Shown here: positions 1 through 37,928 of the stretch, piece after piece | How positions within the stretch are numbered: the first letter of the stretch is position 1 | Layout: every line of letters starts with the position of its first letter | Origin: a virus | Lineage: Duplodnaviria > Caudoviricetes | Direction: 5' to 3' (one strand) | DNA: 64,000 nucleotides | IMG/VR virus record: IMGVR_UViG_3300038318_000521 | Span: 830-64,829 of that record | Position numbers and translations under genes: made by a program | Notes under the pieces: generated by a model | Seen by the model: only the letters and a program-made list of their open reading frames with translations | What the model was told of the DNA's origin: nothing | The model's database searches: none

Positions 1-1560
1 TTGACGAGCCAACACACATCAAAGGAAAATTCAGTTCGCTTACTAGCAAGGTCAAGCAACTCGCAGGAGGTGGCAAAGATGATTGAGGATTTCAAGAAGG
101 GGTGGCGTTTAGCCATAGCCGGAAAAGATAGATTACCGAAGATGCTGGGAGAAGAAGCGGGACGTATGGTGAGTTATATCGTAACAGGAAAGCCTCCCAA
201 ACCCAAAGAACCCGAACCGGTGGAACCTGCCCCGCGCAAATTGTTTAAGCCTGGTGTATTATTCGGCTATTGGAAAGGCAAGCCCATCCACTTTAAGCCC
301 ACGGATCATCGCCATAAGATTGTTCTGGGTGCGACAGGAACAGGCAAAACTGTCTGGGCCAAAAATTTGGTCATCAGTCGCCCTGGGATTGCTTACATGG
401 ACAATGCAGATGGCTTGGCAGCAGAAGAAATATTGCGATCATTGCCAGAAGAACGCCTTTCAAAAACCGTTTTTCTAGACCATTTCGACAAGCGTTTTCC
501 ACTCCCGATAGGTTTCATTTCGCCAGCGACAGATGTTTTCTCACAGGATGCTGTCACTGCTCAGATGGTAGACTTTTTCGAAACCAACTTTGGAGTCGAA
601 GGTCAATACATGACAACTGAGTTGATTAGCTATGCCTGTAAAGCGGTAATGGCTCTGGAAGGCTCCACGTTGCTCGATGTGGTCAAGACGGTTAGCGACC
701 CAGAGTATCGTCAATCGGTGCTCGTACGGCTGGGCAGAGAGCACCAGGATACACTTAATTGGTGGGATAGGTTCGACGGGCTAAGCCAGGCAAAGCAAAA
801 CCAAGTTGCAGAATCTTTTTTGCGGAGGGCAGGACTCCTATTTCGAGATCGCTTTTTGAAATACACGCTAGGCCATCCGCCTAAAAACCTTGATTATCGC
901 AAGTGGATAGACGAAGGATACACTGTAATAATCAGAGCGCCAGCAAGCCTGGGTAAGCTCACGGTAAGGGTTATTATGGCCATCCATGCTATTAATTTCT
1001 GGAGCGCAACGTTATCCAGGGAGAACGTACCTATAAGCAAGCGAACACCCTTTCTATTGGTTACCGATGAACCTCAATCTTGGCTTTCTCGTAATGAAGA
1101 TGCATTGGACGACATTTTTAGTAAGGCGCGCAAATATGGTTTCGGCATGGTCTGCCTGTTTCAATCCTTTAAGCAAATATCTAAAGAATCGCCGGCTCTA
1201 CTACGCATTATGCTTGATAATCAACCGGACTTAATTGTATTTGGTACGTCAAAGGAACAGGTAGATCTCCCATACAACCCAGAAGAATTGCGGAAATATC
1301 ACTTTATCGGGAAGGTAGGAGACGTTGAGCCGTTCGTGGCTAAAGCCCCAGGTTTGCCGGAAGTAGTTAGCCAAAGTATAAAGTTCTTCATAGATGGGCA
1401 AAAAAACCACTTTAACCACCACTGGCAGGACATAGAAAATACCATAGCAAAGGGGGGATATGATTGCGCCCCACAGATGTATGGGTTAACCGCTACGTCA
1501 CACCTAGACTCACCATTCGGGACAAAGAGATCATCCGGTTCGTACACAATTATCGAATAG
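1..1560 (+). CDS. VirD4/TraD/HerA-like P-loop ATPase (coupling-protein-like); possibly 5'-truncated by the window edge
   Basis: Walker A GATGTGKT, Walker B LLVTDEPQ, ARKYG and QSFKQ motifs typical of T4CP/HerA-FtsK ATPases. Confidence 0.75.
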   Translation: MTSQHTSKENSVRLLARSSNSQEVAKMIEDFKKGWRLAIAGKDRLPKMLGEEAGRMVSYIVTGKPPKPKEPEPVEPAPRKLFKPGVLFGYWKGKPIHFKPTDHRHKIVLGATGTGKTVWAKNLVISRPGIAYMDNADGLAAEEILRSLPEERLSKTVFLDHFDKRFPLPIGFISPATDVFSQDAVTAQMVDFFETNFGVEGQYMTTELISYACKAVMALEGSTLLDVVKTVSDPEYRQSVLVRLGREHQDTLNWWDRFDGLSQAKQNQVAESFLRRAGLLFRDRFLKYTLGHPPKNLDYRKWIDEGYTVIIRAPASLGKLTVRVIMAIHAINFWSATLSRENVPISKRTPFLLVTDEPQSWLSRNEDALDDIFSKARKYGFGMVCLFQSFKQISKESPALLRIMLDNQPDLIVFGTSKEQVDLPYNPEELRKYHFIGKVGDVEPFVAKAPGLPEVVSQSIKFFIDGQKNHFNHHWQDIENTIAKGGYDCAPQMYGLTATSHLDSPFGTKRSSGSYTIIE

Positions 1561-2111
1561 TGACAAGTGAACAACTGGCTCGATTCTTCTGGCCGTATTG
1601 TTCAAACGCTCAGAGATTATGCAACCGGAGACTTCAAATTCTAGTTCAACTGAGATGCTTGGATAGGTATTACCCCCTTGTGCACCCAGGCAAGGCACAC
1701 CAACACTTAGTCTTGGACACTGCCGGGGCCAAGGTGCTCAGCCTTGAACGCTGGCGCAAGATACCTGCCCTATCTTTAACGTATCGGCACCAAGTGCTAG
1801 TGACTGAGTTTGCTATTAGAGCCGGGGAATACGGCCTGAGAGGTGGTGATGTTGAATATCCTCTGGGCCCGGTTAGAGCAGACTTGTACTACCCGGTTAA
1901 GAATTTAGCCGTAGAAATAGATACTGGCAGCACGTCACGCAAACAACTGATCAGCAAGGCCCAACGTTATCGCAGGGTTGGGGTTGATCAGGTGGTGATG
2001 GTGACAGAAGGCTCCAATGACAGACTAAAGACGTTTTTAAGTACGCTGGGGCATGGCGTGGGGGCACATTTTGACCAACTCGACAAGCTACTGCAATCAA
2101 TAACACGTTGA
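1464..2111 (+). CDS. Replication-relaxation (Replic_Relax-like) protein
   Basis: N-terminal wHTH-like LTxRD..II......R.VTSEQL; conserved His (HQVLV); PD-(D/E)xK-like RADL...AVEIDTG; directly follows the ATPase. Confidence 0.7.
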   Translation: MRPTDVWVNRYVTPRLTIRDKEIIRFVHNYRIVTSEQLARFFWPYCSNAQRLCNRRLQILVQLRCLDRYYPLVHPGKAHQHLVLDTAGAKVLSLERWRKIPALSLTYRHQVLVTEFAIRAGEYGLRGGDVEYPLGPVRADLYYPVKNLAVEIDTGSTSRKQLISKAQRYRRVGVDQVVMVTEGSNDRLKTFLSTLGHGVGAHFDQLDKLLQSITR

Positions 2112-2199
2112 ATACTTTGGGTGGGTTTGGGAATTATAAGAAGGGATCTTTTGGCAGTACATTGAATCGGGTAACAAAAGTGAAAAGGAGTGATGATTT

Positions 2200-2679
2200 G
2201 TGAAAAGAAATATGGTTTTTGCTCTACTAATTGTGTTGGTGACATCGGCAATCGCTTATGCGGGGGTTCCTACGATTCCCTCTGTAGCAGACACAAAGCG
2301 GTTAGCCATGGAATACTACGAACAAAATGATTGGATGAACGCCGTTGAACGCCTGTCACTCTGGGAAACGGAAGCACATATGATTGCCACCCTGACATTA
2401 GCTGCGACTAAGCCTGGTGCCAGCCCCACTGCTTTGAGGGAACTTCCCACACCGCAACTTGCAGTAATGGCTGATTATAGCGAGCTATCGCAGAAGTATT
2501 CTAAGGAGAGGAACGAAGCTGTTTTCTTACAAGCTCAATGCTACTACAATTTGGGCGAACATAAGCAAGCGACCGAATGCCTAGAAAGATTATTCGAACT
2601 GGTAAGTTATCGCCAGTGGGAGTTATGGACCGAAGGAAGGAAGCTCCTTGGTGTGATTTTGGGGCTAGGAATTGAATAA
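2200..2679 (+). CDS. Secreted TPR-like helical protein
   Basis: Signal peptide MKRNMVFALLIVLVTSAIAYA; TPR-like segment AVFLQAQCYYNLGEHKQATECLERL. Confidence 0.55.
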   Translation: MKRNMVFALLIVLVTSAIAYAGVPTIPSVADTKRLAMEYYEQNDWMNAVERLSLWETEAHMIATLTLAATKPGASPTALRELPTPQLAVMADYSELSQKYSKERNEAVFLQAQCYYNLGEHKQATECLERLFELVSYRQWELWTEGRKLLGVILGLGIE

Positions 2680-2691
2680 AAAACATATGCA

Positions 2692-2726
2692 AAGAACCGC
2701 CCAGGCTCTCAACTCGGGCGGTTCTT
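2692..2726. terminator. Intrinsic terminator hairpin between convergent genes
   Basis: 11-bp inverted repeat aagaaccgccc / gggcggttctt. Confidence 0.75.
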
Positions 2727-6075: not shown

Positions 6076-6483
6076 TCACTTGCTATCAACCTCTTTCAGT
6101 TGTTCTAACGCTTTTTTTAGCGGGCCAGGCAGTGGAACGCCCATCTTACCCAAGTTCTCCATGACAGAAATTCCTTCGTTCCCTACATACCAGAAGATTG
6201 TTGCCGTTTGCACTAATGGCGTAGCGGATCCAACTACCCTATCAACCAAGGTGGCTAGTGCAACTAAGACAAAAATCCCAACTTTACGTGGGATTCCCTT
6301 TTTACCTACTTTGCTATTGGTTTTGCCCGTCTTTGACGATGCAAGTATGCCCGTGATAATATCAAATGTCACAACGGCAACTAGGATCTTTAGTGACATG
6401 GACCACTCCCAAAACAAAAACGAGAATAACGAACCACCCAGCGCAAAGAGCATTTTTAAAGCGTTTACATCAGTTTTTTCCAC
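6076..6483 (-). CDS. Holin (phage holin family 4 / toxin-secretion type)
   Basis: DIITG..AS...NSKVGKKGI.RK and NEGISVMENLGKMGVPLP signatures; TM segments. Confidence 0.85.
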   Translation of the reverse strand: MEKTDVNALKMLFALGGSLFSFLFWEWSMSLKILVAVVTFDIITGILASSKTGKTNSKVGKKGIPRKVGIFVLVALATLVDRVVGSATPLVQTATIFWYVGNEGISVMENLGKMGVPLPGPLKKALEQLKEVDSK

Positions 6484-6490
6484 CTTTCCA

Positions 6491-6787
6491 TCAACCCCCT
6501 AACAGTTTGAGTAGCACAACAGCTAACCCACCAATAACTCCCCCCAAAACTGTTGCCCAAAAGTCCAACCATTCTGGAGTGCCCCTTTTCCACCACCAAT
6601 CCCAGACAATCTCTTTGACCGCTCCAGCAAGTGCTGCCACGAACAAACCAAAGCCCACAGCACCCATCATCACGAATACCTTTAACCAACTCCACGACAG
6701 CCAAACCACAAGCGGGTATACAAAAAGCCCCGCCAATAGTGACAGGGCTAGTCCAGCCAGCAAATGCAGTTGTTTGTCCTTTTGCAT
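6491..6787 (-). CDS. Small integral membrane protein (DKxxH, VanZ/YfiM-like)
   Basis: DKQLH, KE..WD and D..AT.LGG motifs; three hydrophobic segments. Confidence 0.55.
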   Translation of the reverse strand: MQKDKQLHLLAGLALSLLAGLFVYPLVVWLSWSWLKVFVMMGAVGFGLFVAALAGAVKEIVWDWWWKRGTPEWLDFWATVLGGVIGGLAVVLLKLLGG

Positions 6788-6804
6788 GGTTCACACCCTT
6801 CTTT

Positions 6805-7611
6805 TTACAGTTCGAATAATTCTTCCCGAACCTCATATTTTTCCAGACCTACCAAGCCATGAAAGATCTCGGGAACCTCTGGATGAATAATGATGTTCTC
6901 AGATCGGCGTTGGTATTGGGTAGCCTGTAGTTTACTGAAATATCCCTTTCTTTGTTCGTGTTTGGTCGCGAAAAACTCTGCGTGATTCTTGGCTTGTAGC
7001 ATTCTATCTTGCACGAACAAGTCTTTTAGGTGATGTCTCAAAACATTTGAATCGTACTCCGGAGGTAGGTTGTGGCTTGTGAATCCATCTCTGTTTTGGG
7101 GCAGTCCCTCAAAACGAAAACAATCGCCCCCCCACATGGACCGAATCATCGGAGAGTTTCGAAAGATCCGAATGTTTCGGTAAGTATACGTGTCTTGCCT
7201 TTCCCAGCCGAAAATCGTGGTGATGGGTTGTCGTAGAGCGTTATATCCCATGTAGTGAGCCATCTCGATTTCTGCCAGGGTAGCTTCGTATAAACGAGGG
7301 TGGAAGTATTCATCCGCTTGAATTTCTATAATCCAATCATAGCCCACACATTCGTTTTGAAGCAGGCTTTCTAACGCTTCGTCAATCGTCTCCCAGAATT
7401 GGCTTTTTTGATGGGGAATCTGAGTAACCACAATCTTTGGCCAGCGTTTTTCCATGCGCTTTAAGACTTCTAACGTTCCATCCGTTGATCCACCATCATT
7501 GACAAATAAAACATCTACCAACGGCAATGTTGTAATCAGCGCTTCGACAAATGGGTATTGAGCAGACAAAACGTTATGGAACGGGCAAATGCCCGCAACC
7601 TTAATTCCCAT
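6805..7611 (-). CDS. GT-A fold glycosyltransferase (family 2-like)
   Basis: VNDGGSTDGTLEVL and WIIEIQADE (DXD-like) motifs; ATG chosen after RBS GAGGGG. Confidence 0.85.
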   Translation of the reverse strand: MGIKVAGICPFHNVLSAQYPFVEALITTLPLVDVLFVNDGGSTDGTLEVLKRMEKRWPKIVVTQIPHQKSQFWETIDEALESLLQNECVGYDWIIEIQADEYFHPRLYEATLAEIEMAHYMGYNALRQPITTIFGWERQDTYTYRNIRIFRNSPMIRSMWGGDCFRFEGLPQNRDGFTSHNLPPEYDSNVLRHHLKDLFVQDRMLQAKNHAEFFATKHEQRKGYFSKLQATQYQRRSENIIIHPEVPEIFHGLVGLEKYEVREELFEL

Positions 7612-8569
7612 GTGGGACACCCCTCATAGCCTCTAGGTGTTTTCTAGTATCCTTAGCTATAGCAGGCAAATCAACGTCTGCTCCCAAGAGTATCATTTTT
7701 TCAGCGGGTTTGTCCCCTCCAGGCACATTAAAAAGAACAGTCCACCGTTCCTTAGTCGGTAGGCTGTTCGTTATTATTGTAAAGATTGGTGTTTCTACAA
7801 TGGCTACGCCGTGTAAACAGCTCCACACTATTGGCATACTGAGTAGCTCGATCAAATAATCGGTGCCCGTTTGGTCGATGCTGTTCATCACATCTAGCCA
7901 AATGTCACCGATTCTGATTGACTCCTCACAGTCTAAGCTGCATGGAAAATGTGTTGTTGTGCGCAACCCCATATACCTAAGCATTTGATTCGTATGGATG
8001 TGACCTTCAACCTCTATCACTCTGTCAGCTACCATCTTAGAGTTCTTCGTCTCTTCTGCGGAGTGCCATACGGGGTCATAATAACCGTCTCCCCATTTTT
8101 CTACAAAGAATGTGCTACAACAATCGGGAAACAACAGTAAGTCTCCCAGTTCCTTGTGATCCGTTTGCCCTCTAGCCATGTACGATGAAGCTCTACGAAA
8201 CGCTTCTGCATCTTCTAAGTTCCTGGCCATTACTCCGTAGGCACTACTATTGGAGTCGCCCACCACGGTCGGAATATGCCGATGGCTAAAGCCTCCATAG
8301 TTTCTAGTCCACTGTATTGGAAGCCAAACCATGTTGTCTTTGTGGAATCTTTCGATCAAACTATGAAAGGTGTGGGGCGAAAAGTGGATTGTACCGCACT
8401 TGCGCAGCCCCCTTCTTACCATTTCATATTCGGCTTTATCATGAAGCGGGAGGGCCCTATTCAACATAACTTCGTATTTCTCTCTGGCTTCGGTAGAGTT
8501 CCAAACCAGTCTTGTGAAAGGGTTGACGTCTATCTGCAATAGTCCATCTTGGTTGAGCTTATTCATCAT
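7601..8569 (-). CDS. Cys-motif protein resembling DUF483
   Basis: FPDCCSTFF and HFPCSLDC motifs recall the GYPxCC / PCSxxC pattern of DUF483 (from memory); RBS GGGGAGG. Confidence 0.5.
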   Translation of the reverse strand: MMNKLNQDGLLQIDVNPFTRLVWNSTEAREKYEVMLNRALPLHDKAEYEMVRRGLRKCGTIHFSPHTFHSLIERFHKDNMVWLPIQWTRNYGGFSHRHIPTVVGDSNSSAYGVMARNLEDAEAFRRASSYMARGQTDHKELGDLLLFPDCCSTFFVEKWGDGYYDPVWHSAEETKNSKMVADRVIEVEGHIHTNQMLRYMGLRTTTHFPCSLDCEESIRIGDIWLDVMNSIDQTGTDYLIELLSMPIVWSCLHGVAIVETPIFTIITNSLPTKERWTVLFNVPGGDKPAEKMILLGADVDLPAIAKDTRKHLEAMRGVPHGN

Positions 8570-8580
8570 TTTTTCCTCCC

Positions 8581-9903
8581 CTACACTTTCCACGAGTCGC
8601 CATGATCGCCATGGTCACCGTGTGCTCTGTCGCCGTGTTGTCTATCGCCATGACCACAATCGTCCTCAGAAGGGGACTGGCTGGGTAACGGTTGTGTCGT
8701 CTGCCTGCAATGACTTAGGTTTACCCTGGCATCTTGTCTCCAGCTACTCGCCCTGGGATTACTTAGGGTAGACATAAAGCAAAAAGCGTCAGGATTCATA
8801 CCCTTCACTGAGTTAGGATCTGAGAACGCCTCGCTTTCTCGATCTGTGGTAAGTTCGATGTTTGGTAGCATCATTTTGAGCAACCTTGATGTTTCTTCGA
8901 ACAATCCCCTTAATCCTAGGCAATACCGACTTCGATTACGCCAATCACCATCTATGCCTTCCGCAGGGCACCCTCCGGTGCAATTTCTCCAATATTTACA
9001 GTCTTTGCACCCACCGAGTTCCTGCCCTATCTTGGGAAGAATCTCATAACGAATCAAACCGAACCCTCTATCGCCTGCATTCTGAAAACGGGGATAGATA
9101 TGTCCGGTCTTTGAGGTTTTCATGCAGCTTGCGGTGCTTCCGTCTGACAAAATGACTCTTTCTGCACCGGCGTTGTAATAGTCACACGGAGCGAAAGAAC
9201 AAGTCCCTTGATTAAGACCTAGCAGACTATCTACGATGTCTCGATAAGGAAGCCAATCCCCGCCCACTTCTGTCAAAATAAAACGGGTCATGTCTCGGTA
9301 AAAGTCATCGAGTTCCTCGGGGGTTAGTGCAATTTTCTGTATACTGGGATAATCAATTTCAGCAGGATTCATTCGGCCAGTTATTCCGAGCTCTTTCAAT
9401 TCCAAAATCCATTGTTTAAATGCTTCTCGTTGACCAGGCAAGCCATTAGCTTTTGTAAGCACACAGATGATGCCCACTTGAATACCCTCGCGACGTAGCC
9501 ACTTGATGTTTTCCCAAATTAAATCTGCAACATGTTTATCTTTGGAATCCACTGGTATGCGGTATCGGCTCATCTCGCCAGGCCCATCGAAGGAAACGCC
9601 AACCTGGGTTTTGTAAAGTTTGAAAAGCTCAATATGTTTCTCATTAATCAGAGTTGCGTTCGTTTGGATGGACGAGTGCCCGATTTTCTCAAACGATGTT
9701 GCCAGGATGGCCTCGACCACATCAAGGGGGGCCAGTAAAGCCTCTCCCCCATGAAGGTAAGGTGCGGTTTGCTCTCGCTCGATTTGAGTTAATACCGCCT
9801 CTAAGTCAAGTGGTCTGTGGTTGGCCCTTTCCCGATAAACGTGTTCATAACAGTATGCACACTGTAAATTGCAGAGTGCATTAGTAATTTTTACACTAAG
9901 CAT
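8581..9903 (-). CDS. Radical SAM/SPASM enzyme (peptide-maturase type) with a C-terminal HGD-repeat tail
   Basis: CNLQCAYC (CX3CX2C), HGGE motif, SPASM CSFAPC...C and CKDCKYWRNCTGGC (CX2CX5CX3C)...C. Confidence 0.92.
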   Translation of the reverse strand: MLSVKITNALCNLQCAYCYEHVYRERANHRPLDLEAVLTQIEREQTAPYLHGGEALLAPLDVVEAILATSFEKIGHSSIQTNATLINEKHIELFKLYKTQVGVSFDGPGEMSRYRIPVDSKDKHVADLIWENIKWLRREGIQVGIICVLTKANGLPGQREAFKQWILELKELGITGRMNPAEIDYPSIQKIALTPEELDDFYRDMTRFILTEVGGDWLPYRDIVDSLLGLNQGTCSFAPCDYYNAGAERVILSDGSTASCMKTSKTGHIYPRFQNAGDRGFGLIRYEILPKIGQELGGCKDCKYWRNCTGGCPAEGIDGDWRNRSRYCLGLRGLFEETSRLLKMMLPNIELTTDRESEAFSDPNSVKGMNPDAFCFMSTLSNPRASSWRQDARVNLSHCRQTTQPLPSQSPSEDDCGHGDRQHGDRAHGDHGDHGDSWKV

Positions 9904-9920
9904 TGTGCTTCCCCTCTCAG

Positions 9921-11516
9921 TTAAAAATACCCCTCAAAACGGGGGTTATCCATGTGACCAGTGCCTGAATCGGAGTGATCGGTGTGGTCAAACGTTATGT
10001 GATCTGTATGGTCTATATAATGAGCATCCCAATATGGGCTAAAAACACCTCCATCATTGTGTATGTTGCCATAATCTTGATGGTCTATATGGGGGTACGG
10101 TATGTTAATGACTTCATCGACATGACCTTCCGCTACGTTAATGTACGCCACGTTTTCATGCGACACGTTTTCGTGAGAGACGTTTTCGTGCGACACGTTT
10201 TCGTGCGACACGTTTTCATGAGACACATTCTCGTGAGAGACATTCTCGTGCGCCACGTTTTCGTGAGACACATTCTCGTGAGACACATTCTCGTGCGCCA
10301 CGTTTTCATGCGATACATTCTCGTGAGAGACATTTTCGTGATCTCGATCTCCGTGGGGCGAATCAAGGTGATCCCCGTGGTCAGAATGGAATGGATCCCA
10401 TCCGTTTAGGTATGGTGTATCTAGATGCACTACATTCTCGTGCGACACGTTTTCATGCGACACGTTCTCATGAGACACATTCTCGTGTGTGCGATTAAAG
10501 TGATCTCGATAATCTCCATGCAGCGTTCCGATGGCTATATCTGTATGACTACGGTTTTCGTGAGGAGAAGCGCTGTCAATGTGATCAAACCACGCATTAT
10601 CGGGATAAGAAGAGCTATCGGAATAAGGGTACGTCCAGTCCACATAATAGGGCCACGAGGGACTTTTCCCCCCCGGATATAGATCTGAATAATTGGCATA
10701 AGGGGGTGAGTAATCCATGTGATCCAAATGAACACGGTCTTCATAACTGGTCCAACTTCCGGAATTCCTGTGTGTCGTGTCGGTGTATGGAGCAATGTTC
10801 TCATGCGACACATTCTCATGCGACACGTTTTCGTGAGATATGTTCTCGTGGGCTCTATCAGTATACGCTTTGTTCTCATGCGCCACGTTTTCATGCGCCA
10901 CGTTTTCATGAGACGTATTCTCGTGTGACACGTTTTCATGAGACGTATTCTCGTGTGACACGTTTTCATGGGACGTATTCTCGTGTGACACGTTTTCGTG
11001 AGACGTATTCTCGTGCGCCACGTTTTCGTGAGACACATTCTCGTGTGACACGTTTTCGTGAGACACATTCTCGTGTGACACGTTTTCGTGATCTTGATCC
11101 GCATGATCATAACTAATGTCCGCGTATATATTCTCGCGAATAAGTCTATCAACATGGTTGTCATCATTGTGTGCAGGCTGGTCCAAGTGATCGGTGTATC
11201 CCTCGTCACGATCACTGTGATACGAACCTCTGATCACATCCCCGCTAGCACTCGGCTTGCTAAACCACAGCCACCTTTGGGGGTCTATGGCTACATAATA
11301 AGGAGGTCTTCCGGATGGAGCTCGCTCTTCGGTGTCGATAACTCGCTTGCGTTGATTCGCATCAATGTAGCAAAAATAGTTTCCCTCGATCCAAAATCTA
11401 CCTGGTGGGTAGGTGGTTGCTCCCATATCGCTGCCTAGGAAACTCCACTCTTCTCCATTTCTGAGGATGTAAAGCCGTTCCCCCTGCACCCAAATATTAC
11501 TGTTATTGTAAGGCAT
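9921..11516 (-). CDS. His/Asx-rich repeat protein (HENVS array); putative virion fibre and rSAM substrate
   Basis: RBS GGAAGGAGG; 37 HEN motifs plus many H/Y/W-x-D/N triads; N-terminal IWVxG/FWIEG beta repeats; immediately downstream of Tal. Confidence 0.85.
   Translation of the reverse strand: MPYNNSNIWVQGERLYILRNGEEWSFLGSDMGATTYPPGRFWIEGNYFCYIDANQRKRVIDTEERAPSGRPPYYVAIDPQRWLWFSKPSASGDVIRGSYHSDRDEGYTDHLDQPAHNDDNHVDRLIRENIYADISYDHADQDHENVSHENVSHENVSHENVSHENVAHENTSHENVSHENTSHENVSHENTSHENVSHENTSHENVAHENVAHENKAYTDRAHENISHENVSHENVSHENIAPYTDTTHRNSGSWTSYEDRVHLDHMDYSPPYANYSDLYPGGKSPSWPYYVDWTYPYSDSSSYPDNAWFDHIDSASPHENRSHTDIAIGTLHGDYRDHFNRTHENVSHENVSHENVSHENVVHLDTPYLNGWDPFHSDHGDHLDSPHGDRDHENVSHENVSHENVAHENVSHENVSHENVAHENVSHENVSHENVSHENVSHENVSHENVSHENVAYINVAEGHVDEVINIPYPHIDHQDYGNIHNDGGVFSPYWDAHYIDHTDHITFDHTDHSDSGTGHMDNPRFEGYF
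10146..10340 (-). repeat. 13 tandem 15-bp units encoding HENV(S/A)
   Basis: Counted directly; units vary mostly at synonymous positions. Confidence 0.95.
10428..10487 (-). repeat. 4 tandem 15-bp units encoding HENV(S/V)
   Basis: Counted directly. Confidence 0.95.
10791..11090 (-). repeat. 15 + 4 tandem 15-bp HENxx units separated by one YTDRA unit
   Basis: 10866-11090 (15 units) and 10791-10850 (4 units), counted directly. Confidence 0.95.
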
Positions 11517-14736: not shown

Positions 14737-17700
14737 CTAAAATCCACTACCATCTGCGGTTGACAATGCTTCTCTCACTAATTCTGTTACGAATCCGCGT
14801 ACATCTGTAACGCCGTTCAAATTCACGTTTACTTGCTGGATTAACACTTGTTGAATCAAAAGCTCTTGTGCATGAATGGTGCCGATTTCCGCCATCTGGA
14901 ACGTTTGAAACACTTCAAACATTTGTTCGCTCATGAGTCCAGGTAGACGATCCAAATTTGAAAGTGGTCGTAGAGATTCTAGGAACAGATCTCTATCTTG
15001 ACCGGAAAGACGAGTGATTTGAACTCCTCTGATTTCATGTTGAATCAAGGTATCGTCTGTTGGGAACCATTCGTCAAGCATGTCACCGCCGAATTCTTCA
15101 AAAGCCTTTTCGCCTTCTTCCACTAACTTGCGAATGGCTCTGCGAATTTTCTCGACTTCATCTTCGCTGTACCCATCTTCAGCAAATTCCTGCATCATCC
15201 CAGCGATGAGTTTGGCTTGTGCTTCGAACTCTGTAGCCAGCAAAACCTGTTCTATCAAAATGCGCTTTAGCTGTTGTCCCAACACTTGTTCAAAGTCTTG
15301 CCAGGTGGCTTCGCCAGCAATGGATGCCGCCATGGCTGAACCCAGGCTGTTCAACGATTGGTTCATGGAATCGATCATTACTTTTCCAGTTTCAAATCCC
15401 GCTCTAGCCGCTTCCTCATTGGAGATTTTCCAACCAGTCTGCCACAAAATGCCCAGGAAACGTTCTTTCTTGATGTTTGCTTCTGTTGCCTGATAACTGA
15501 CGCCGAATTCATCTAAGGCTTCATTCAGACCTTCTATACCCTGTTTTAAGGATTGAAGATCTTGGGGAACGGGTCCGGGGTCAAACAACTGATTTATCAA
15601 GGAGATTCCCGCTGAAATTCCAGCAAAGACGGGGTTTCCGGTTAGCCCTGCTATTGCGCCTGAAATTCCAGCAATAGCCCCCGTAAATCCTCCACCACCG
15701 CCTGTGTATCCCGCCATCGCCCCGTACATCGTTGCAATTCCGTCTCCGTAATCCCCGAACATCTCGCCCATAGAGTTCCGCATGTTATCAAAGGCCTGTG
15801 GAGCTTCTCGGATAAGTCGGAAAAATTCCTCGGTCTGGTTAACAGCCTCGCTGAACTTTGGTGCCATTTGACCGAAAAACTGCGCTGTAGATTCTTCGGC
15901 GTCGCGTATCTCTTCGCCAGTTTTCAGAAGATCGTTCAAGTATTCTTGCTGTTTGATATGGTCATCTGTAGCATCAATCAGCTTCAACAACTGACCATAC
16001 TTGTCTCGCAAGCTAGCCAGGTCACTCTTGTTATATTCAATTGCCTTAATGCGGGCTACCGCATTCTGCTGTGCTTGCTCTTTTTCTAGTTCAATCTCTT
16101 GTTTACGAACTTCTTGCCATTCCGATGATAGCATGTAGAGCTCACCATAAAGCTGTTCGTATCCCTCTCTCATCCGCCTAAGGATGTCCAGCCTATCCTC
16201 TAGGCTAATTTCCTCTTCGATGGTCATGGCGTTGAGTAAAGACCGTTGATCTTCGAGTGTTTGTTTGGCCAGATTGTGCTTAGCTCGCTGGAGGCCACGT
16301 TCAAGTTCGATTTTCCGTTCGTTGCCTGCGGCGGTTAGCTCCAGTTCGCTTTCGATACCTGCGATTTGCTCTTCAAGGACCGCCTGCGCACTTACCTGCC
16401 TAGACTGGATCAAGAAACTCTGCCATTGCTCTTCGCGTCTTTGAGCGTCCTCTAATCGCCTTTCCTCTTCCTTTTCTAGCCGAAGTTGGAAAGAATCAAG
16501 TTCAGCCATCGCATAACGCCCGGAATCCATGGAGGCATACAGGTTCATGCGCTCCGCAATCCATGCCTGCGTTTCCACAAGGTCAGCTTCCCGAAGATCA
16601 CCAAGGGACTTGATTTCATCAGCTACCCTATCAGCTAGGTGGCGGGCCTCGATTTCAGCGTAGTTCTTGCTAATCGCCTGCAAGCGTTCATGGTGGGCCT
16701 GATAAGCAAGCTCAATCATTTCTTGGCTGCCCTTGTATTGGTCCAACTCCCGATTCAAGCGAAGCAATGATTCAGCGATTTCTGCTTCTTCTAACTCACC
16801 CTTATTTCTTAGTCTTTGAATTTCAACCTCTTGGGTTCTGTAGCTGATTTCTTGGGCTGCCCTGATAGCATCTGCATCCATCTGTTCCGTGAGCTGACGG
16901 CGTAATTGGGCTATAGCTTGGATTTGGTCAAAGGACTGGGCATAAGCTCCTGTATATCTGTCTAGATTCTCCAGTTGTTGCTCTAACGTCCACCCCTCAA
17001 CCTCTGCCAGTGCTCTGTAATTCGTCATACGCAGGGCAAAGATTTCGTTCTCGATGGACATTAATTCTTCAGTGGTCTGAACTAGGCCCTCAACTTCCAG
17101 GACGTTTTCCTGTAGCCACTTTATTTGTTGCTCATAACTACTTACAACCTCATCATTTTGGTGCTTTAATTCCTCGAATAGCTGTAATTGCTCCCGGAGT
17201 GGTTCGTTACCACTTGCCGGAGCTTCAGCCGGGTCTAGTTGCTCTTGTACCCTGGCAACTTCACGCCATAGCCGCAACCATTCATCTGTGCCTACTGTAA
17301 CGCGCTCCAATTGGTGGTTAAGAACCTTCAAATGGTCTCCCAGGCTAATCTTCTCAGCCTCGACCAGGTAACTATAGTAGTTTTCGATATGCTTCTCCAT
17401 GGCCTCTAGGTCTTGGAGGTCAACATGGATTTCTCCGCCCTCTAAAGCCCTTCTAAGCATCCCCTCTTGTGGACCATAGTGACTAACCATCTCAAGAATT
17501 TGATTCCAGCGATCTGCCGTGGTTAAAGCAAAACTATCAAGTTCCTTTTTAACAACGCTTAGGGTTTCCTGCACCCTTACCTGCGTCATGGCCGCCAAGC
17601 TACCGTCTACCGTCTGCGATTGGAGGTAGTCGAAGTATTCGCTTAGGTGGGTCTCTAAGCCGCCTAATTCGTCCACGTATGCACCTATGCCCATGCGCAA

Positions 17701-20151
17701 GAGTTCAAGCTCTGCTTCAAAGACTTGCATCCTGCTAGTTACGATGGTGTCGGGGTCAACCTCTTTCGTGGCATCCTCTACTTCGTCCGCCAACTTCTTC
17801 AGTTCATCACGCATCTTGCCAAGTTCAACGGCAATTAAGCCACCACGAAGTTCTTCGGACAAGATTTCGTCCACCACGTTCTGCTCTAAGAACTGGATAT
17901 AATCCTTGTGAATGGATTCTAAATCGCCATAAACAGCTTCGTATTCATCACCGACATGGCGTACTAGCTCTATCCTTGCACGATATAAGGCCATTTCTCC
18001 CCGGATCGCATCTTCGATTTCCTCGGCTGTTTTGATAACGACTTCTTTGACTGCTTCTTGTTCTTTAACAACCGGCAGTTCTTCCCTTGCCATTGTGGTT
18101 ATGCCCTTGGCCCTACGTTCAAGTTCATCACTTACCGCCGCAGCGTGTGTTTGGGTATCCAGAATTTCAGCTATTCTTTCATTGTCTTTTTCTGCTCTGT
18201 CCATTATCTTGGACACACTAGCAACAGCCTGATTTGCCGCAGCTCCAAGATAGGCCACCTTGTCTTCCCAAGTGCTGGCTGATATATCGTCCATAAACAT
18301 ATAACCGGGGTCCCACTCAAGGAAGATTTTTCTCATGGTATCTTCGGCAATTTGGGCTGCTTCGTCCGTGCCCCGCAAAAGGGCCTCCTCCCAACCCATG
18401 AAAGCCAATTGCATTTCATCTCTTAGGCGGATTATCCTGTTTGCTTCCTCCATTTGAGTGCCAACATCTAGTTGCCGCTTGTCTCGTGAAGCATACAAAC
18501 GATTCAATTCTTCTTCAAGTTGATTCCTGGTCCTCAAGTATTCTAAATTCGCCATTCGCAACTGTAGCTCACTCTGAGTCTCCAAGGTTTTTATATAGGT
18601 CTCCAGAGTACCAATGTTTGCCCGGATAGCCTCATCAATGGTATTATAACCTTTGGATAATTGCGGTTGCAGAGTGATGATTTCATTCATTACAGTCTCT
18701 AACCGCCTGTGTTCTTGTTCGGACTTGTCAGGCTTGCCTTCAAGCGTCTTGTATTCATCGACTAGCCTGCGGAGTGTATCGGCCTGGTCTTGTGTGGCCC
18801 TGGATGAATCGAGAGACTGTTGGTAAAAAGCCTTCATGTCTCTTGCGCTACCAGTCATGGCGAAGGCCAAAGCAGTCACCGCTGCCACGCCACCATAAAT
18901 AATACCCGTAGGGCCCATTAGTATGGGAAGTGCTTTCAGAAGCTGGTTAATAATTAGCATTGTAGGACCAGCTGCTACTGCAAATCCTGCTACTGTCACA
19001 ACAAGACGTTGAGTTTCTGGGTTGAGATCCCGAATCCAGCCAAAGAGTTCTGTAACCTGTTGAACAACGCCACGTAACGCTGGCTCGAAGTTTCCTGTCA
19101 TTTCCAACGCTAAGCTTTCATAGACCGATTGCATTATCTTCAGGTCACCAGATAAGGTGTCAAGCTGTATAGCCGCTTGTTCGGCGGCCTTATTGGTTCC
19201 TGTAATGCTTTCGTTGTATTGCCTGATGGCGTCCCCGCCTTGACCCAATAGTTGCATCATGCCAGGTCCAGCAATCTGCTGGAATAACCTAAGACTTTGC
19301 GTTGACGTAATTCCACGTTCGTTCAGGGTATCAAGAATATCAGCGATAGAGTTCATTTCCGGGTGAAGGTCATCAAGAGATAACTCCAGCTCCTTAATGA
19401 CATTAATTGCATCACCAGTAGGATTTGCCAGTTCTGCTAAGGCTCTTTTTAGTATATTACCGGCCTGTTCACCTTGGTAACCAGCGTTTAGAAGCCCCAT
19501 GAGGGCAGCCGTGGTTTCCTCGATTGAGTACCCGAATCCAGCGGCGACAGGGCCTGCGTTTTTCATTGCTCCAGCTAACTTATCCAGACTAGCCAGCGAT
19601 TCAGAGTTAGCTGCGGCGAATAGGTTTGCTACCCTACTGGCTTCTCCCGCCTCTAGACTGAACTGGCTTAGAGTAGCTGCCACCACCTCAGACGTGTAAG
19701 CAAGATCTGATTGCGACGCTACAGCTAAGGTTAGTACACCATCCAATGCGCTAATTGATTGGGCGGCGTCCATCCCAGACTGTGCTAAGTAATAAAGGGC
19801 ATCGGCGGCTTGACTAGCCTTAAAGACGGTTTCTTCACCTGCTTTTCGGGCGGCGGCAGTCAGTTGCTCTAATTCTTCGACCGTTGCACCAATAACCGAT
19901 TGCGTGTTGGCCATTGATTGTTGGAAATCGGCAAACGTATTAACCCATTGGCGGGCCATTAACAGAAGTGGAGCTGTTACAGCTACCGACATGCGCTTAC
20001 CCATGCGATCGAAGTGATCGCCCATGCGATTCATCGCTTTTTGGGTTTCAGTATCGATCCACTGATTTTGTCGGGCTATATGTTCAATACCTTGATCATA
20101 CTTAGCGTAGTTAAGACCCACCTCAGCCCATATGCTTCCTAAATTCTCCAT
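14737..20151 (-). CDS. Tape measure protein (TP901-type core), 1804 aa
   Basis: FQQSMANTQSVIGAT...ASQAADALYYLAQSG core; long helical/coiled-coil body; hydrophobic segments. Confidence 0.93.
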   Translation of the reverse strand: MENLGSIWAEVGLNYAKYDQGIEHIARQNQWIDTETQKAMNRMGDHFDRMGKRMSVAVTAPLLLMARQWVNTFADFQQSMANTQSVIGATVEELEQLTAAARKAGEETVFKASQAADALYYLAQSGMDAAQSISALDGVLTLAVASQSDLAYTSEVVAATLSQFSLEAGEASRVANLFAAANSESLASLDKLAGAMKNAGPVAAGFGYSIEETTAALMGLLNAGYQGEQAGNILKRALAELANPTGDAINVIKELELSLDDLHPEMNSIADILDTLNERGITSTQSLRLFQQIAGPGMMQLLGQGGDAIRQYNESITGTNKAAEQAAIQLDTLSGDLKIMQSVYESLALEMTGNFEPALRGVVQQVTELFGWIRDLNPETQRLVVTVAGFAVAAGPTMLIINQLLKALPILMGPTGIIYGGVAAVTALAFAMTGSARDMKAFYQQSLDSSRATQDQADTLRRLVDEYKTLEGKPDKSEQEHRRLETVMNEIITLQPQLSKGYNTIDEAIRANIGTLETYIKTLETQSELQLRMANLEYLRTRNQLEEELNRLYASRDKRQLDVGTQMEEANRIIRLRDEMQLAFMGWEEALLRGTDEAAQIAEDTMRKIFLEWDPGYMFMDDISASTWEDKVAYLGAAANQAVASVSKIMDRAEKDNERIAEILDTQTHAAAVSDELERRAKGITTMAREELPVVKEQEAVKEVVIKTAEEIEDAIRGEMALYRARIELVRHVGDEYEAVYGDLESIHKDYIQFLEQNVVDEILSEELRGGLIAVELGKMRDELKKLADEVEDATKEVDPDTIVTSRMQVFEAELELLRMGIGAYVDELGGLETHLSEYFDYLQSQTVDGSLAAMTQVRVQETLSVVKKELDSFALTTADRWNQILEMVSHYGPQEGMLRRALEGGEIHVDLQDLEAMEKHIENYYSYLVEAEKISLGDHLKVLNHQLERVTVGTDEWLRLWREVARVQEQLDPAEAPASGNEPLREQLQLFEELKHQNDEVVSSYEQQIKWLQENVLEVEGLVQTTEELMSIENEIFALRMTNYRALAEVEGWTLEQQLENLDRYTGAYAQSFDQIQAIAQLRRQLTEQMDADAIRAAQEISYRTQEVEIQRLRNKGELEEAEIAESLLRLNRELDQYKGSQEMIELAYQAHHERLQAISKNYAEIEARHLADRVADEIKSLGDLREADLVETQAWIAERMNLYASMDSGRYAMAELDSFQLRLEKEEERRLEDAQRREEQWQSFLIQSRQVSAQAVLEEQIAGIESELELTAAGNERKIELERGLQRAKHNLAKQTLEDQRSLLNAMTIEEEISLEDRLDILRRMREGYEQLYGELYMLSSEWQEVRKQEIELEKEQAQQNAVARIKAIEYNKSDLASLRDKYGQLLKLIDATDDHIKQQEYLNDLLKTGEEIRDAEESTAQFFGQMAPKFSEAVNQTEEFFRLIREAPQAFDNMRNSMGEMFGDYGDGIATMYGAMAGYTGGGGGFTGAIAGISGAIAGLTGNPVFAGISAGISLINQLFDPGPVPQDLQSLKQGIEGLNEALDEFGVSYQATEANIKKERFLGILWQTGWKISNEEAARAGFETGKVMIDSMNQSLNSLGSAMAASIAGEATWQDFEQVLGQQLKRILIEQVLLATEFEAQAKLIAGMMQEFAEDGYSEDEVEKIRRAIRKLVEEGEKAFEEFGGDMLDEWFPTDDTLIQHEIRGVQITRLSGQDRDLFLESLRPLSNLDRLPGLMSEQMFEVFQTFQMAEIGTIHAQELLIQQVLIQQVNVNLNGVTDVRGFVTELVREALSTADGSGF

Positions 20152-37784: not shown

Positions 37785-37860
37785 TGGCGAAGGAGGCAGG
37801 ACTCGAACCTGCAGCCCTCGGTTTTGGAAACCGTAGCTCTTCCGTTTGAGCTACCGCCTT
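37785..37860 (-). tRNA. trnW: tRNA-Trp(CCA) with a degenerate acceptor stem
   Basis: 76 nt; D arm GCTC/GAGC with GG; anticodon loop TTCCAAA; T arm GCAGG-TTCGAGT-CCTGC; G73 and encoded CCA; A1:C72 and C5:C68 mismatches. Confidence 0.8.
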
Positions 37861-37928
37861 ACGAATTTCTATCTAAAATACCGATTTGGTTTCGATCTTC
37901 GTTTACCGCTCAGTTAAACAATGAGCAT

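Follow-up and report, generated by a model that had tools for sequence, protein, structure and literature searches.

A radical SAM/SPASM enzyme and its candidate substrate, a His-x-Asn/Asp array protein, in the tail region of a provirus

The window described here is a stretch of 64,000 nucleotides (positions 830 to 64,829 of IMG/VR virus record IMGVR_UViG_3300038318_000521; Duplodnaviria, Caudoviricetes), taken from a provirus record of 64.8 kb that was judged 92% complete. Nearly all genes in the window are encoded on the minus strand, and among them is a four-gene cassette located downstream of the tape measure and Tal/J-like genes, with the lysis genes coming after it (Table 1). We refer to its products as P0001, a protein with a long array of H-x-N and H-x-D triplets; P0002, a radical S-adenosylmethionine (rSAM) enzyme with a SPASM domain; P0003, a Cys-rich DUF483-like protein; and P0004, a family 2 glycosyltransferase (GT2). 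An earlier reading of the sequence, the original prediction, had placed these four proteins in tightly packed same-strand genes between Tal and the holin, with no terminator among them, and had proposed that the rSAM enzyme cross-links the repeat protein by the chemistry of ribosomally made peptides that are modified after translation (RiPPs). The layout was confirmed by open reading frames (ORFs), gene spacing and matches in the flanks, and the four identities also stood, that of P0003 on a weak DUF483 match and that of P0004 on scores just above the cutoffs. The spacing is 23 nt between the Tal and P0001 genes, 17 nt between the P0001 and P0002 genes and 11 nt between the P0002 gene and the ATG start of the P0003 gene, the end of which overlaps the P0004 gene by 11 nt. 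A GGAGG-like Shine-Dalgarno (SD) site is present ahead of each of the four genes. No convincing terminator was found inside the cassette (terminator-like sites, 10 against 5.6 ± 2.8 in shuffled sequences), where the sites on the minus strand are weak.

Nearly all histidines of P0001 belong to a single motif. Sixty-two of the 64 are in H-x-N/D triplets (39 H-x-N and 23 H-x-D), whereas 10,000 shuffled sequences gave 12.5 on average and never more than 24; the triplets span residues 100-523. Perfect HENVS pentads account for 22 units and are encoded by DNA tandem repeats of 15, 30 and 45 nt with 81-94% matches. The motif is not a property of the pentads only: 25 of the 27 histidines outside HEN units are also followed by N or D at the second position, as are 16 of the 23 tyrosines in the array. 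H-x-S triplets and the anSME sequon [CS]-x-P-x-R are both absent from P0001. In metagenome assemblies from other samples, contigs break or are misjoined within the pentad arrays (10150-11090), with contig ends at approximately 10175-10340 and 10928-11058; repeat number may differ between strains, or the repeats may merely defeat short-read assembly.

The array is preceded by an all-beta domain of approximately 100 amino acids with a three-fold repeat of the type P-G-S-x-W-[IV]-E-G-x2-L-x-Y-I-D. It is followed by a conserved strand, N-P-R-F-E-G-Y-F, and a P-x5-G end motif that is conserved in the family alignment. An AlphaFold2 (AF2) model built with 24 homologues has a predicted local distance difference test score (pLDDT) of about 90 for residues 10-60, and it also shows a short strand at the C-terminus, but residues 101-520 are structureless (pLDDT about 40), which fits the expectation for the core of a maturase substrate. 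The best fold match of the N-terminal domain was the beta-prism-II lectin-type bacteriocin LlpA (Z 4.3, root-mean-square deviation (rmsd) 4.2, 88 aligned residues), with curculin and a mushroom lectin next at Z of about 3. The three-fold repeat is compatible with a beta-prism-II fold, but we treat this match as a lead only.

A profile search with the rSAM enzyme carried out the survey of other phages that the original prediction had called for. It found 80 IMG/VR loci, and two Thermus phage loci were counted with them (82 viral loci); some of these hold two to five array paralogues. An ORF with an H-x-[DN] array that includes nearly all of its histidines (for example, 112/116, 97/99 and 54/54) is present at 74 of the 82 viral loci, on the strand of the rSAM gene and usually directly upstream of it. 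A DUF483-like gene is present at 77 of the 82, and most failures to find either gene are at contig ends. The array proteins range in length from 169 to 1186 amino acids, and the N-terminal W-I-E-G...Y-I-D motif of P0001 is common to Cumys_13, from the Thermus phage Cumys, and to 40 of 91 distinct array proteins. On the large phage contigs L021, L023, L024 and L030-L033, three to five paralogous array proteins are encoded in a row upstream of one rSAM gene.

Across the 91 array proteins, His is followed by D or N at the second position in 3173 of 3400 cases (D 2515, N 658), whereas the value for neighboring ORFs is 9%. The residue between them is free to vary, and successive His are spaced 3 to 9 residues apart. 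When all residue types in the arrays are considered, D or N stands at +2 after 98% of His, 60% of Phe, 39% of Tyr and 34% of Trp, but after only 2-15% of the residues of other types. This aromatic-only rule is the most discriminating result of the sequence analysis, and it follows the aromatic-X2-X3 grammar of the peptides known as triceptides. Given the near-obligate adjacency of the array and rSAM genes at about 80 phage loci and the aromatic-x-D/N motif found across the family, the array is very probably the substrate of the rSAM enzyme. This part of the original prediction was strengthened, while the type of reaction that it had proposed was not established, P0002 being a member of a new family.

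The same statistics bear on the idea that the array is not modified at all but folds by itself, either as a rod bridged by Zn or Ni or as a pentapeptide beta-helix, the enzymes serving some other target. The 5-residue period of HENVS and the presence of His and Asp, which are classic metal ligands, would be accounted for by such a fold, and there are weak matches to models containing pentapeptide repeats (the SV2 luminal domain, 15.7 bits, and PipB). However, the period is not fixed across the family, and perfect pentads are missing from the close relatives L005, L007 and L010. Metal chelation is hard to argue because Phe, which cannot bind metal, nonetheless keeps the +2 rule. The beta-helix was rejected on three counts: no match to the Pfam Pentapeptide family at E ≤ 0.1, no helix in the AF2 model and no fixed 5-residue period in the relatives. 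We give an unmodified, self-folding array very little credence.

P0002 carries the radical SAM motif CX3CX2C (C11, C15, C18) and SPASM cysteines in the pattern C299-x2-C302-x5-C308-x3-C312, which are invariant or nearly so in alignments. It matches Pfam PF04055 at 1.5e-13, and an N-terminal extension of the RiPP recognition element (RRE) type is absent. Its scores against NCBIfam models, with the family cutoff in each case after the slash, were 86/425 bits for AmcB, 83/450 for DynA, 77/349 for anSME (TIGR03942), 60/310 for GrrM, 48/445 for YhhB, 35/370 for FxsB, 31/370 for HxsB and 27/450 for XyeB. The DynA, anSME, AmcB and YhhB models were matched alike by all 48 of the 48 rSAM homologues sampled. 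The best matches in the PDB were anSME 4k36 (5e-32, residues 2-360), followed by the cittilin synthase ChlB (3e-18). As judged by profile scores, P0002 is a new family in the RRE-less neighborhood of anSME and the triceptide synthases, equidistant from DynA, AmcB, YhhB and anSME. The original prediction had held a grouping with sulfatase maturases to be incompatible with a cross-linking role; P0002 is as close to anSME as to the other three. As a new family that reaches no curated cutoff, P0002 has a chemistry that can be predicted but that sequence alone cannot tell.

The C-terminal tail of P0002 (8581-8658, minus strand) contains five H-G-D triplets, a copy of the substrate motif, and at least three H-x-D/N triplets occur in the last 90 residues of 50 of 85 rSAM homologues. 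This tail may be a pseudo-substrate, a site of self-modification or a means of metal delivery. Nanohaloarchaeal homologues (L086 and L094) have a Cys-rich tail in its place.

The closest precedent for the chemistry comes from the triceptide systems (XyeB/XncB, GrrM/OscB, FxsB, YhhB, HaaB, HtkB, ChlB and AmcB), in which an RRE-less rSAM/SPASM enzyme is likewise encoded beside a substrate with repeated aromatic-x-X3 motifs. The precedent for His on which the original prediction leaned is real: rings from His C2 to Cbeta have been proven on HTK, HAA and HNR motifs for HtkB, HaaB and YhhB (PMC11499958). The cassette differs from these systems in that P0002 scores far below the cutoffs (27-86 bits vs 310-450), X3 is fixed as Asp or Asn, a DUF483 partner is obligatory, and the genes are phage-borne in a tail module. 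The candidate substrate is a 531-residue protein with a folded N-terminal domain of about 100 residues and at least 62 motifs rather than a short leader-core peptide, and the bond itself is predicted by analogy.

Among enzymes outside the triceptide group, DynA and anSME give the best full-length profile matches to P0002 (DynA 9-341; anSME 4k36 2-360), and both abstract a hydrogen from Cbeta in a protein or peptide. The bond that DynA makes joins His-N to Cbeta two residues further on, and its product, dynobactin, is a 10-mer antibiotic. The same array could be the substrate of another chemistry, such as a His-N-to-Cbeta or ether link of the DynA/DarE kind, an anSME-like oxidation or hydroxylation of the beta carbon of Asp/Asn, epimerisation, or links between neighboring chains of a trimeric fibre. 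The equidistance of P0002 from anSME, DynA, AmcB and YhhB, with no cutoff reached, would suit this alternative, as would the rank of anSME as the best solved full-length match and the H-x-D tails of many rSAM enzymes, which have no parallel in triceptide systems. Also, maturation in the HXS system gave an unexplained shift of +8 Da, not -2 Da (PMC13128918). However, a strict pairing of D/N with an aromatic residue at i/i+2, which extends to Phe, Tyr and Trp, is what a ring between both residues predicts, whereas oxidation of D/N alone needs no aromatic partner. P0001 is also without the anSME sequon. We regard another chemistry on the same array as unlikely, though it deserves serious attention, and consider the case for three-residue aromatic-to-Cbeta rings to be evenly balanced.

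The genes around the cassette and its relatives point to the tail fibre. In L005, L007 and L010 the cassette is likewise flanked by these Tal and lysozyme genes, and in Cumys the trio of array, rSAM and DUF483-like genes comes directly after a tail collar fibre gene. In two phages the array is part of a fibre protein of a known type: at L017 (2504-4180) and at L023, a Gly-X-Y collagen-like tail fibre (phrog_5073, 4e-47) runs into an array whose His are all in triplets (40 of 40). At L056 (596-4156), 25 consecutive triplets (residues ~781-905) are inserted in a lambda-J-like fibre (phrog_5616, 6e-57; phrog_31, 4e-47), with a globular C-terminal domain downstream of them. These in-frame fusions suggest that the array is a module that fibre proteins use as a stalk or spacer. 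It would resemble the collagen-like stalks of phage fibres, which are also low-complexity repeats between the attachment and distal parts, but those fold by trimerisation without a dedicated enzyme, whereas the H-x-D/N array is always accompanied by an rSAM enzyme. P0001 is probably part of the tail fibre apparatus. The claim of the original prediction that it is a full-size virion protein thus gained support from the tail-fibre context and from the fusions, which make P0001 a candidate virion protein.

A location between tail and lysis genes also raises the question of superinfection exclusion. In a prophage, the matured His-repeat protein might be a moron-encoded factor of the cell envelope that blocks DNA entry by other phages. 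The junction of tail and lysis genes is a common site for morons, and P0004 bears a weak similarity to O-antigen-conversion enzymes (phrog_841, 0.009). The HXS antiphage system, in which HxsB and HxsC mature the full-size His-x-Ser protein HxsA, provides an example of an rSAM-matured His-triplet protein with antiphage activity (PMC13128918). The cassette shares with HXS the rSAM maturation of a full-size protein with His-x-small-polar triplets and a setting of phage-host conflict. HXS, however, is host-encoded and has two rSAM enzymes, HxsD, five H-x-S repeats and a secreted effector that binds peptidoglycan, whereas the phage-encoded cassette has one rSAM enzyme with a DUF483 partner and 62 H-x-N/D triplets, P0001 shows neither a signal peptide nor a peptidoglycan-binding domain, and P0002 scores only 31 bits against the HxsB cutoff of 370. 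The module is also found in isolated Thermus phages (50-178 kb) and on IMG/VR contigs of up to 251 kb, in-frame fusions join its arrays to fibre proteins of the collagen-like and J-like types, and in the window it is tightly spaced with Tal. A role in defense is improbable.

The trio had already been noted in the Thermus phages Cumys and phiMa, and in some prophages, by authors who tentatively proposed a role in DNA modification and did not mention the His triplets (bioRxiv 10.1101/2024.08.14.607894). Both phages carry the same three genes in the same order after tail-fibre genes, with an H-x-D array protein that has the same N-terminal W-I-E-G...Y-[IL]-D repeats, and P0002 is 33% identical to the Cumys_12 rSAM over 84% of the query (tblastn, 5e-50). 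Unlike theirs, the cassette has mostly H-x-N triplets, set in perfect HENVS pentads, and carries an added GT2 gene; its likely host is an anaerobic member of the Bacillota. Our literature search found no paper on rSAM modification of a phage structural protein. The statement of the original prediction that no characterised example is known still holds, but it has to be qualified by the prior notice of the trio and by the protein-sized His-x-Ser substrate of HXS.

If the rSAM and DUF483-like proteins did act on phage DNA, the His-rich gene would be an unrelated neighbor. Homologues of both enzymes are reported to occur beside deazapurine DNA-modification genes in some cyanobacteria (10.1101/2024.08.14.607894), and a class I methyltransferase is commonly fused to the DUF483 protein. 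The rSAM gene was also found on 12 cellular contigs (Chloroflexota, haloarchaea, Nanohaloarchaea, Limnochordales, Paenibacillaceae, Acidobacteriota and Deltaproteobacteria), with an array gene on 8 and a DUF483 gene on 10. At five of the 12 (L086, L089, L093, L094 and L095) the enzyme pair has no adjacent array gene. Against this stand the adjacency of array and rSAM genes at 74 of the 82 viral loci, where they belong to tail modules and not to replication modules; the nearest families of the rSAM enzyme, all of them maturases of proteins or peptides; and the copy of the substrate motif in the rSAM tail. DNA modification is accordingly the sort of explanation to which we attach scant probability. 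The array-less cellular loci imply instead that the enzyme pair is older and broader than the H-x-D substrate and is not restricted to it, and further types of substrate probably exist. In a Desulfobacter metagenome-assembled genome (MAG), the rSAM and DUF483 proteins are fused in a single protein of 716 amino acids (L095:6995-9145).

The match of P0003 to Pfam DUF483 is below the cutoff (E 4e-4), but homologues reach it (up to 29 bits). In an alignment with 29 homologues, P156, C158, C159, D173, C218 and C222 are invariant and H215 is nearly so, giving a family motif of P-x-C-C ... D ... H-x-P-C-x3-C. No NCBIfam model matched. The AF2 model is confident (pLDDT 92), yet Foldseek searches of the PDB and BFVD returned nothing at E ≤ 0.001, and an ESM Atlas search returned only proteins of its own kind. 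Structural alignment with VIA-align produced 2guk (Z 7.4, rmsd 4.1, 108 aligned) and NleE (Z 5.4, rmsd 3.1, 105 aligned), which cover residues 46-172 only and were set aside as too weak. In most other phages the DUF483 protein carries a C-terminal class I SAM methyltransferase domain that P0003 does not have.

P0004 passes the cutoffs of two glycosyltransferase models narrowly (PF13704, 28.1 vs 27.5 bits; PF00535, 25.4 vs 23.3 bits). GT2 homologues follow the cassette at seven other loci (L003, L006, L007, L008, L010, L029 and L084), the rSAM enzymes of which are 34%-65% identical to P0002. They are confined to loci where the DUF483 protein is without the methyltransferase domain; an apparent exception, L010, is an artefact of the ORF start call. 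We regard GT2 as most likely an optional member of the cassette with a tailoring or accessory role. P0001 contains 31 N-x-S/T sequons, and we considered GT2 as a glycosylase of these or of the Ser at +4 in the pentads. Other loci with GT2 have few sequons (2-7), neither the frequency of sequons nor that of Ser at +4 tracks with GT2, and the proposal is unsupported, although it may hold for this one phage.

We favor, by a modest degree of confidence, the interpretation that the cassette belongs to a widespread kind of phage module for maturing a protein of the tail-fibre type after translation. P0001 would be made as a folded N-terminal beta domain followed by an unstructured array of about 420 residues with aromatic-x-Asn/Asp triplets, 62 led by His and 16 by Tyr. 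P0002, with P0003 as its partner, would abstract a hydrogen from the Asn or Asp side chain. The most probable outcome would be closure of a three-residue ring with the His (or Tyr) that stands two positions upstream, in the manner of triceptide synthases acting on H-x-X motifs. With dozens of these small rings, a flexible chain would become a stiff stalk that resists proteases and heat. A second, optional decoration would be added by GT2 here and by the methyltransferase domain fused to DUF483 in most other phages. The fullest form of this proposal is a fibre part made as a ribosomal chain, stapled by a dedicated rSAM enzyme through dozens to more than 100 consecutive aromatic-to-Asp/Asn rings and then glycosylated or methylated; we put it forward tentatively and with some doubt.

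Several observations count against this interpretation. P0001 has no recognisable receptor-binding or baseplate-attachment domain, its match to a PHROG 'tail fiber' family is weak (phrog_28766, 3e-4), and we infer its place in the virion from neighboring genes and from array fusions in other phages. P0002 reached no curated family cutoff and is as close to anSME, an oxidase that does not cross-link, as to the cyclophane synthases. Known triceptide precursors are short peptides with few motifs, not proteins of 500 residues with 60 or more. The original prediction had regarded rSAM homologues without the repeat gene as evidence against it; the array accompanies the enzyme at nearly all viral loci, but the five array-less cellular loci are such cases. 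GT2 is absent from the near-isogenic relative L005 and no link to N-x-S/T sequons was seen across loci, so the predicted tailoring of the repeat protein by GT2 was not established.

Near-identical DNA is present in metagenomes of several studies, from fermentation, wastewater, landfill and biogas. These habitats are anaerobic and suit an oxygen-sensitive enzyme. Among named sequences, the closest homologue of the rSAM enzyme comes from a Bacillota MAG. Two metatranscriptome libraries contain contigs that match the cassette in places (90-99%), but we did not use them as evidence of expression: RNA libraries can hold DNA, transcripts cannot be read from contigs, and stretches that lack cover carry no meaning.

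The features of the cassette and its surroundings are listed in Table 1. A small GC-rich hairpin followed by ATTTTT lies at 9929-9946 on the minus strand, over the last codons of P0001 (the N-P-R-F-E-G-Y-F end) and ahead of P0002; this may be a chance feature or, as is the case in many RiPP operons, a means of reducing read-through into the genes for the enzymes. Another hairpin, at 6749-6726, was considered as the terminator of the operon and dropped, because it falls within the coding sequence of the 98-residue membrane protein. The gene for that protein starts 17 nt past the GT2 gene and ends 7 nt ahead of the holin gene, and the lysis block probably begins with it. A Cys/Trp/Gly-rich ORF of 123 amino acids in another frame (6465-6836) is probably spurious. 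Elsewhere in the prophage there is a tRNA-Trp (CCA) gene (37785-37861, minus strand). The left end of the window (1-2700) has plus-strand genes, including those for a Replic_Relax protein (1464-2111) and a TPR protein (2200-2679), and looks like flanking DNA or another mobile element outside the phage late region.

Table 1. Positions in the window of the cassette genes, neighboring genes and DNA tandem arrays
Feature	Position	Strand	Details
P0001, H-x-N/D array protein (candidate substrate)	9921..11516	-	531 aa, translation
P0002, radical SAM/SPASM enzyme	8581..9903	-	440 aa
P0003, DUF483-like Cys-rich partner	7601..8593	-	330 aa from GTG; SD-led ATG at 8569 (322 aa) is the probable start
P0004, GT2	6805..7620	-	271 aa from GTG; SD-led ATG at 7611 is the probable start
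Tal/J-like tail-tip protein, directly upstream of P0001	11540..14698	-	1052 aa; Sipho_Gp37, fn3, phrog_31 (central tail fibre J)
Tape measure protein	14737..20151	-	phrog_1533 3.8e-88, PF10145
Three-helix membrane protein (predicted)	6491..6787	-	98 aa; sequence reading; weak phrog_35767 match
Holin	6076..6483	-	PF05105 1.8e-35
Endolysin (phage lysozyme)	5510..6040	-	PF00959 7.4e-9
DNA tandem array, 15-nt period, HENVS-encoding, 12.8 copies	10149..10340	-	Tandem Repeats Finder
Further DNA tandem array inside the P0001 gene	10435-10484		Tandem Repeats Finder
DNA tandem array inside the P0001 gene, 30-nt period, 6.4 copies, 94% matches	10899-11091		Tandem Repeats Finder

Cross-linking by rSAM enzymes has so far been a matter of small antibiotic-like peptides and, since 2026, of one bacterial defense protein. 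If the interpretation favored here is true, the cassette and its relatives would provide the first case of RiPP-type carbon-carbon cross-linking of a structural protein of the virion, and a new biological fibre that is cured enzymatically. DUF483 would gain a function, and its fold would represent a maturase partner of a new class. Virus particles would bear covalent modifications that are invisible to annotation based on sequence or structure, and host recognition or particle stability may hang on oxygen-sensitive chemistry of the host cell. The published guess of DNA modification for the module would be corrected, and tail-fibre operons of many phyla and habitats would be involved. To this family the present instance contributes an Asn-rich pentad variant and a branch that bears a glycosyltransferase. 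The Thermus phages Cumys and phiMa (host T. thermophilus HB8) are culturable carriers, so the question is directly testable, and a natural, genetically encoded route from a disordered repeat to a stiff polymer would be useful for protein materials.

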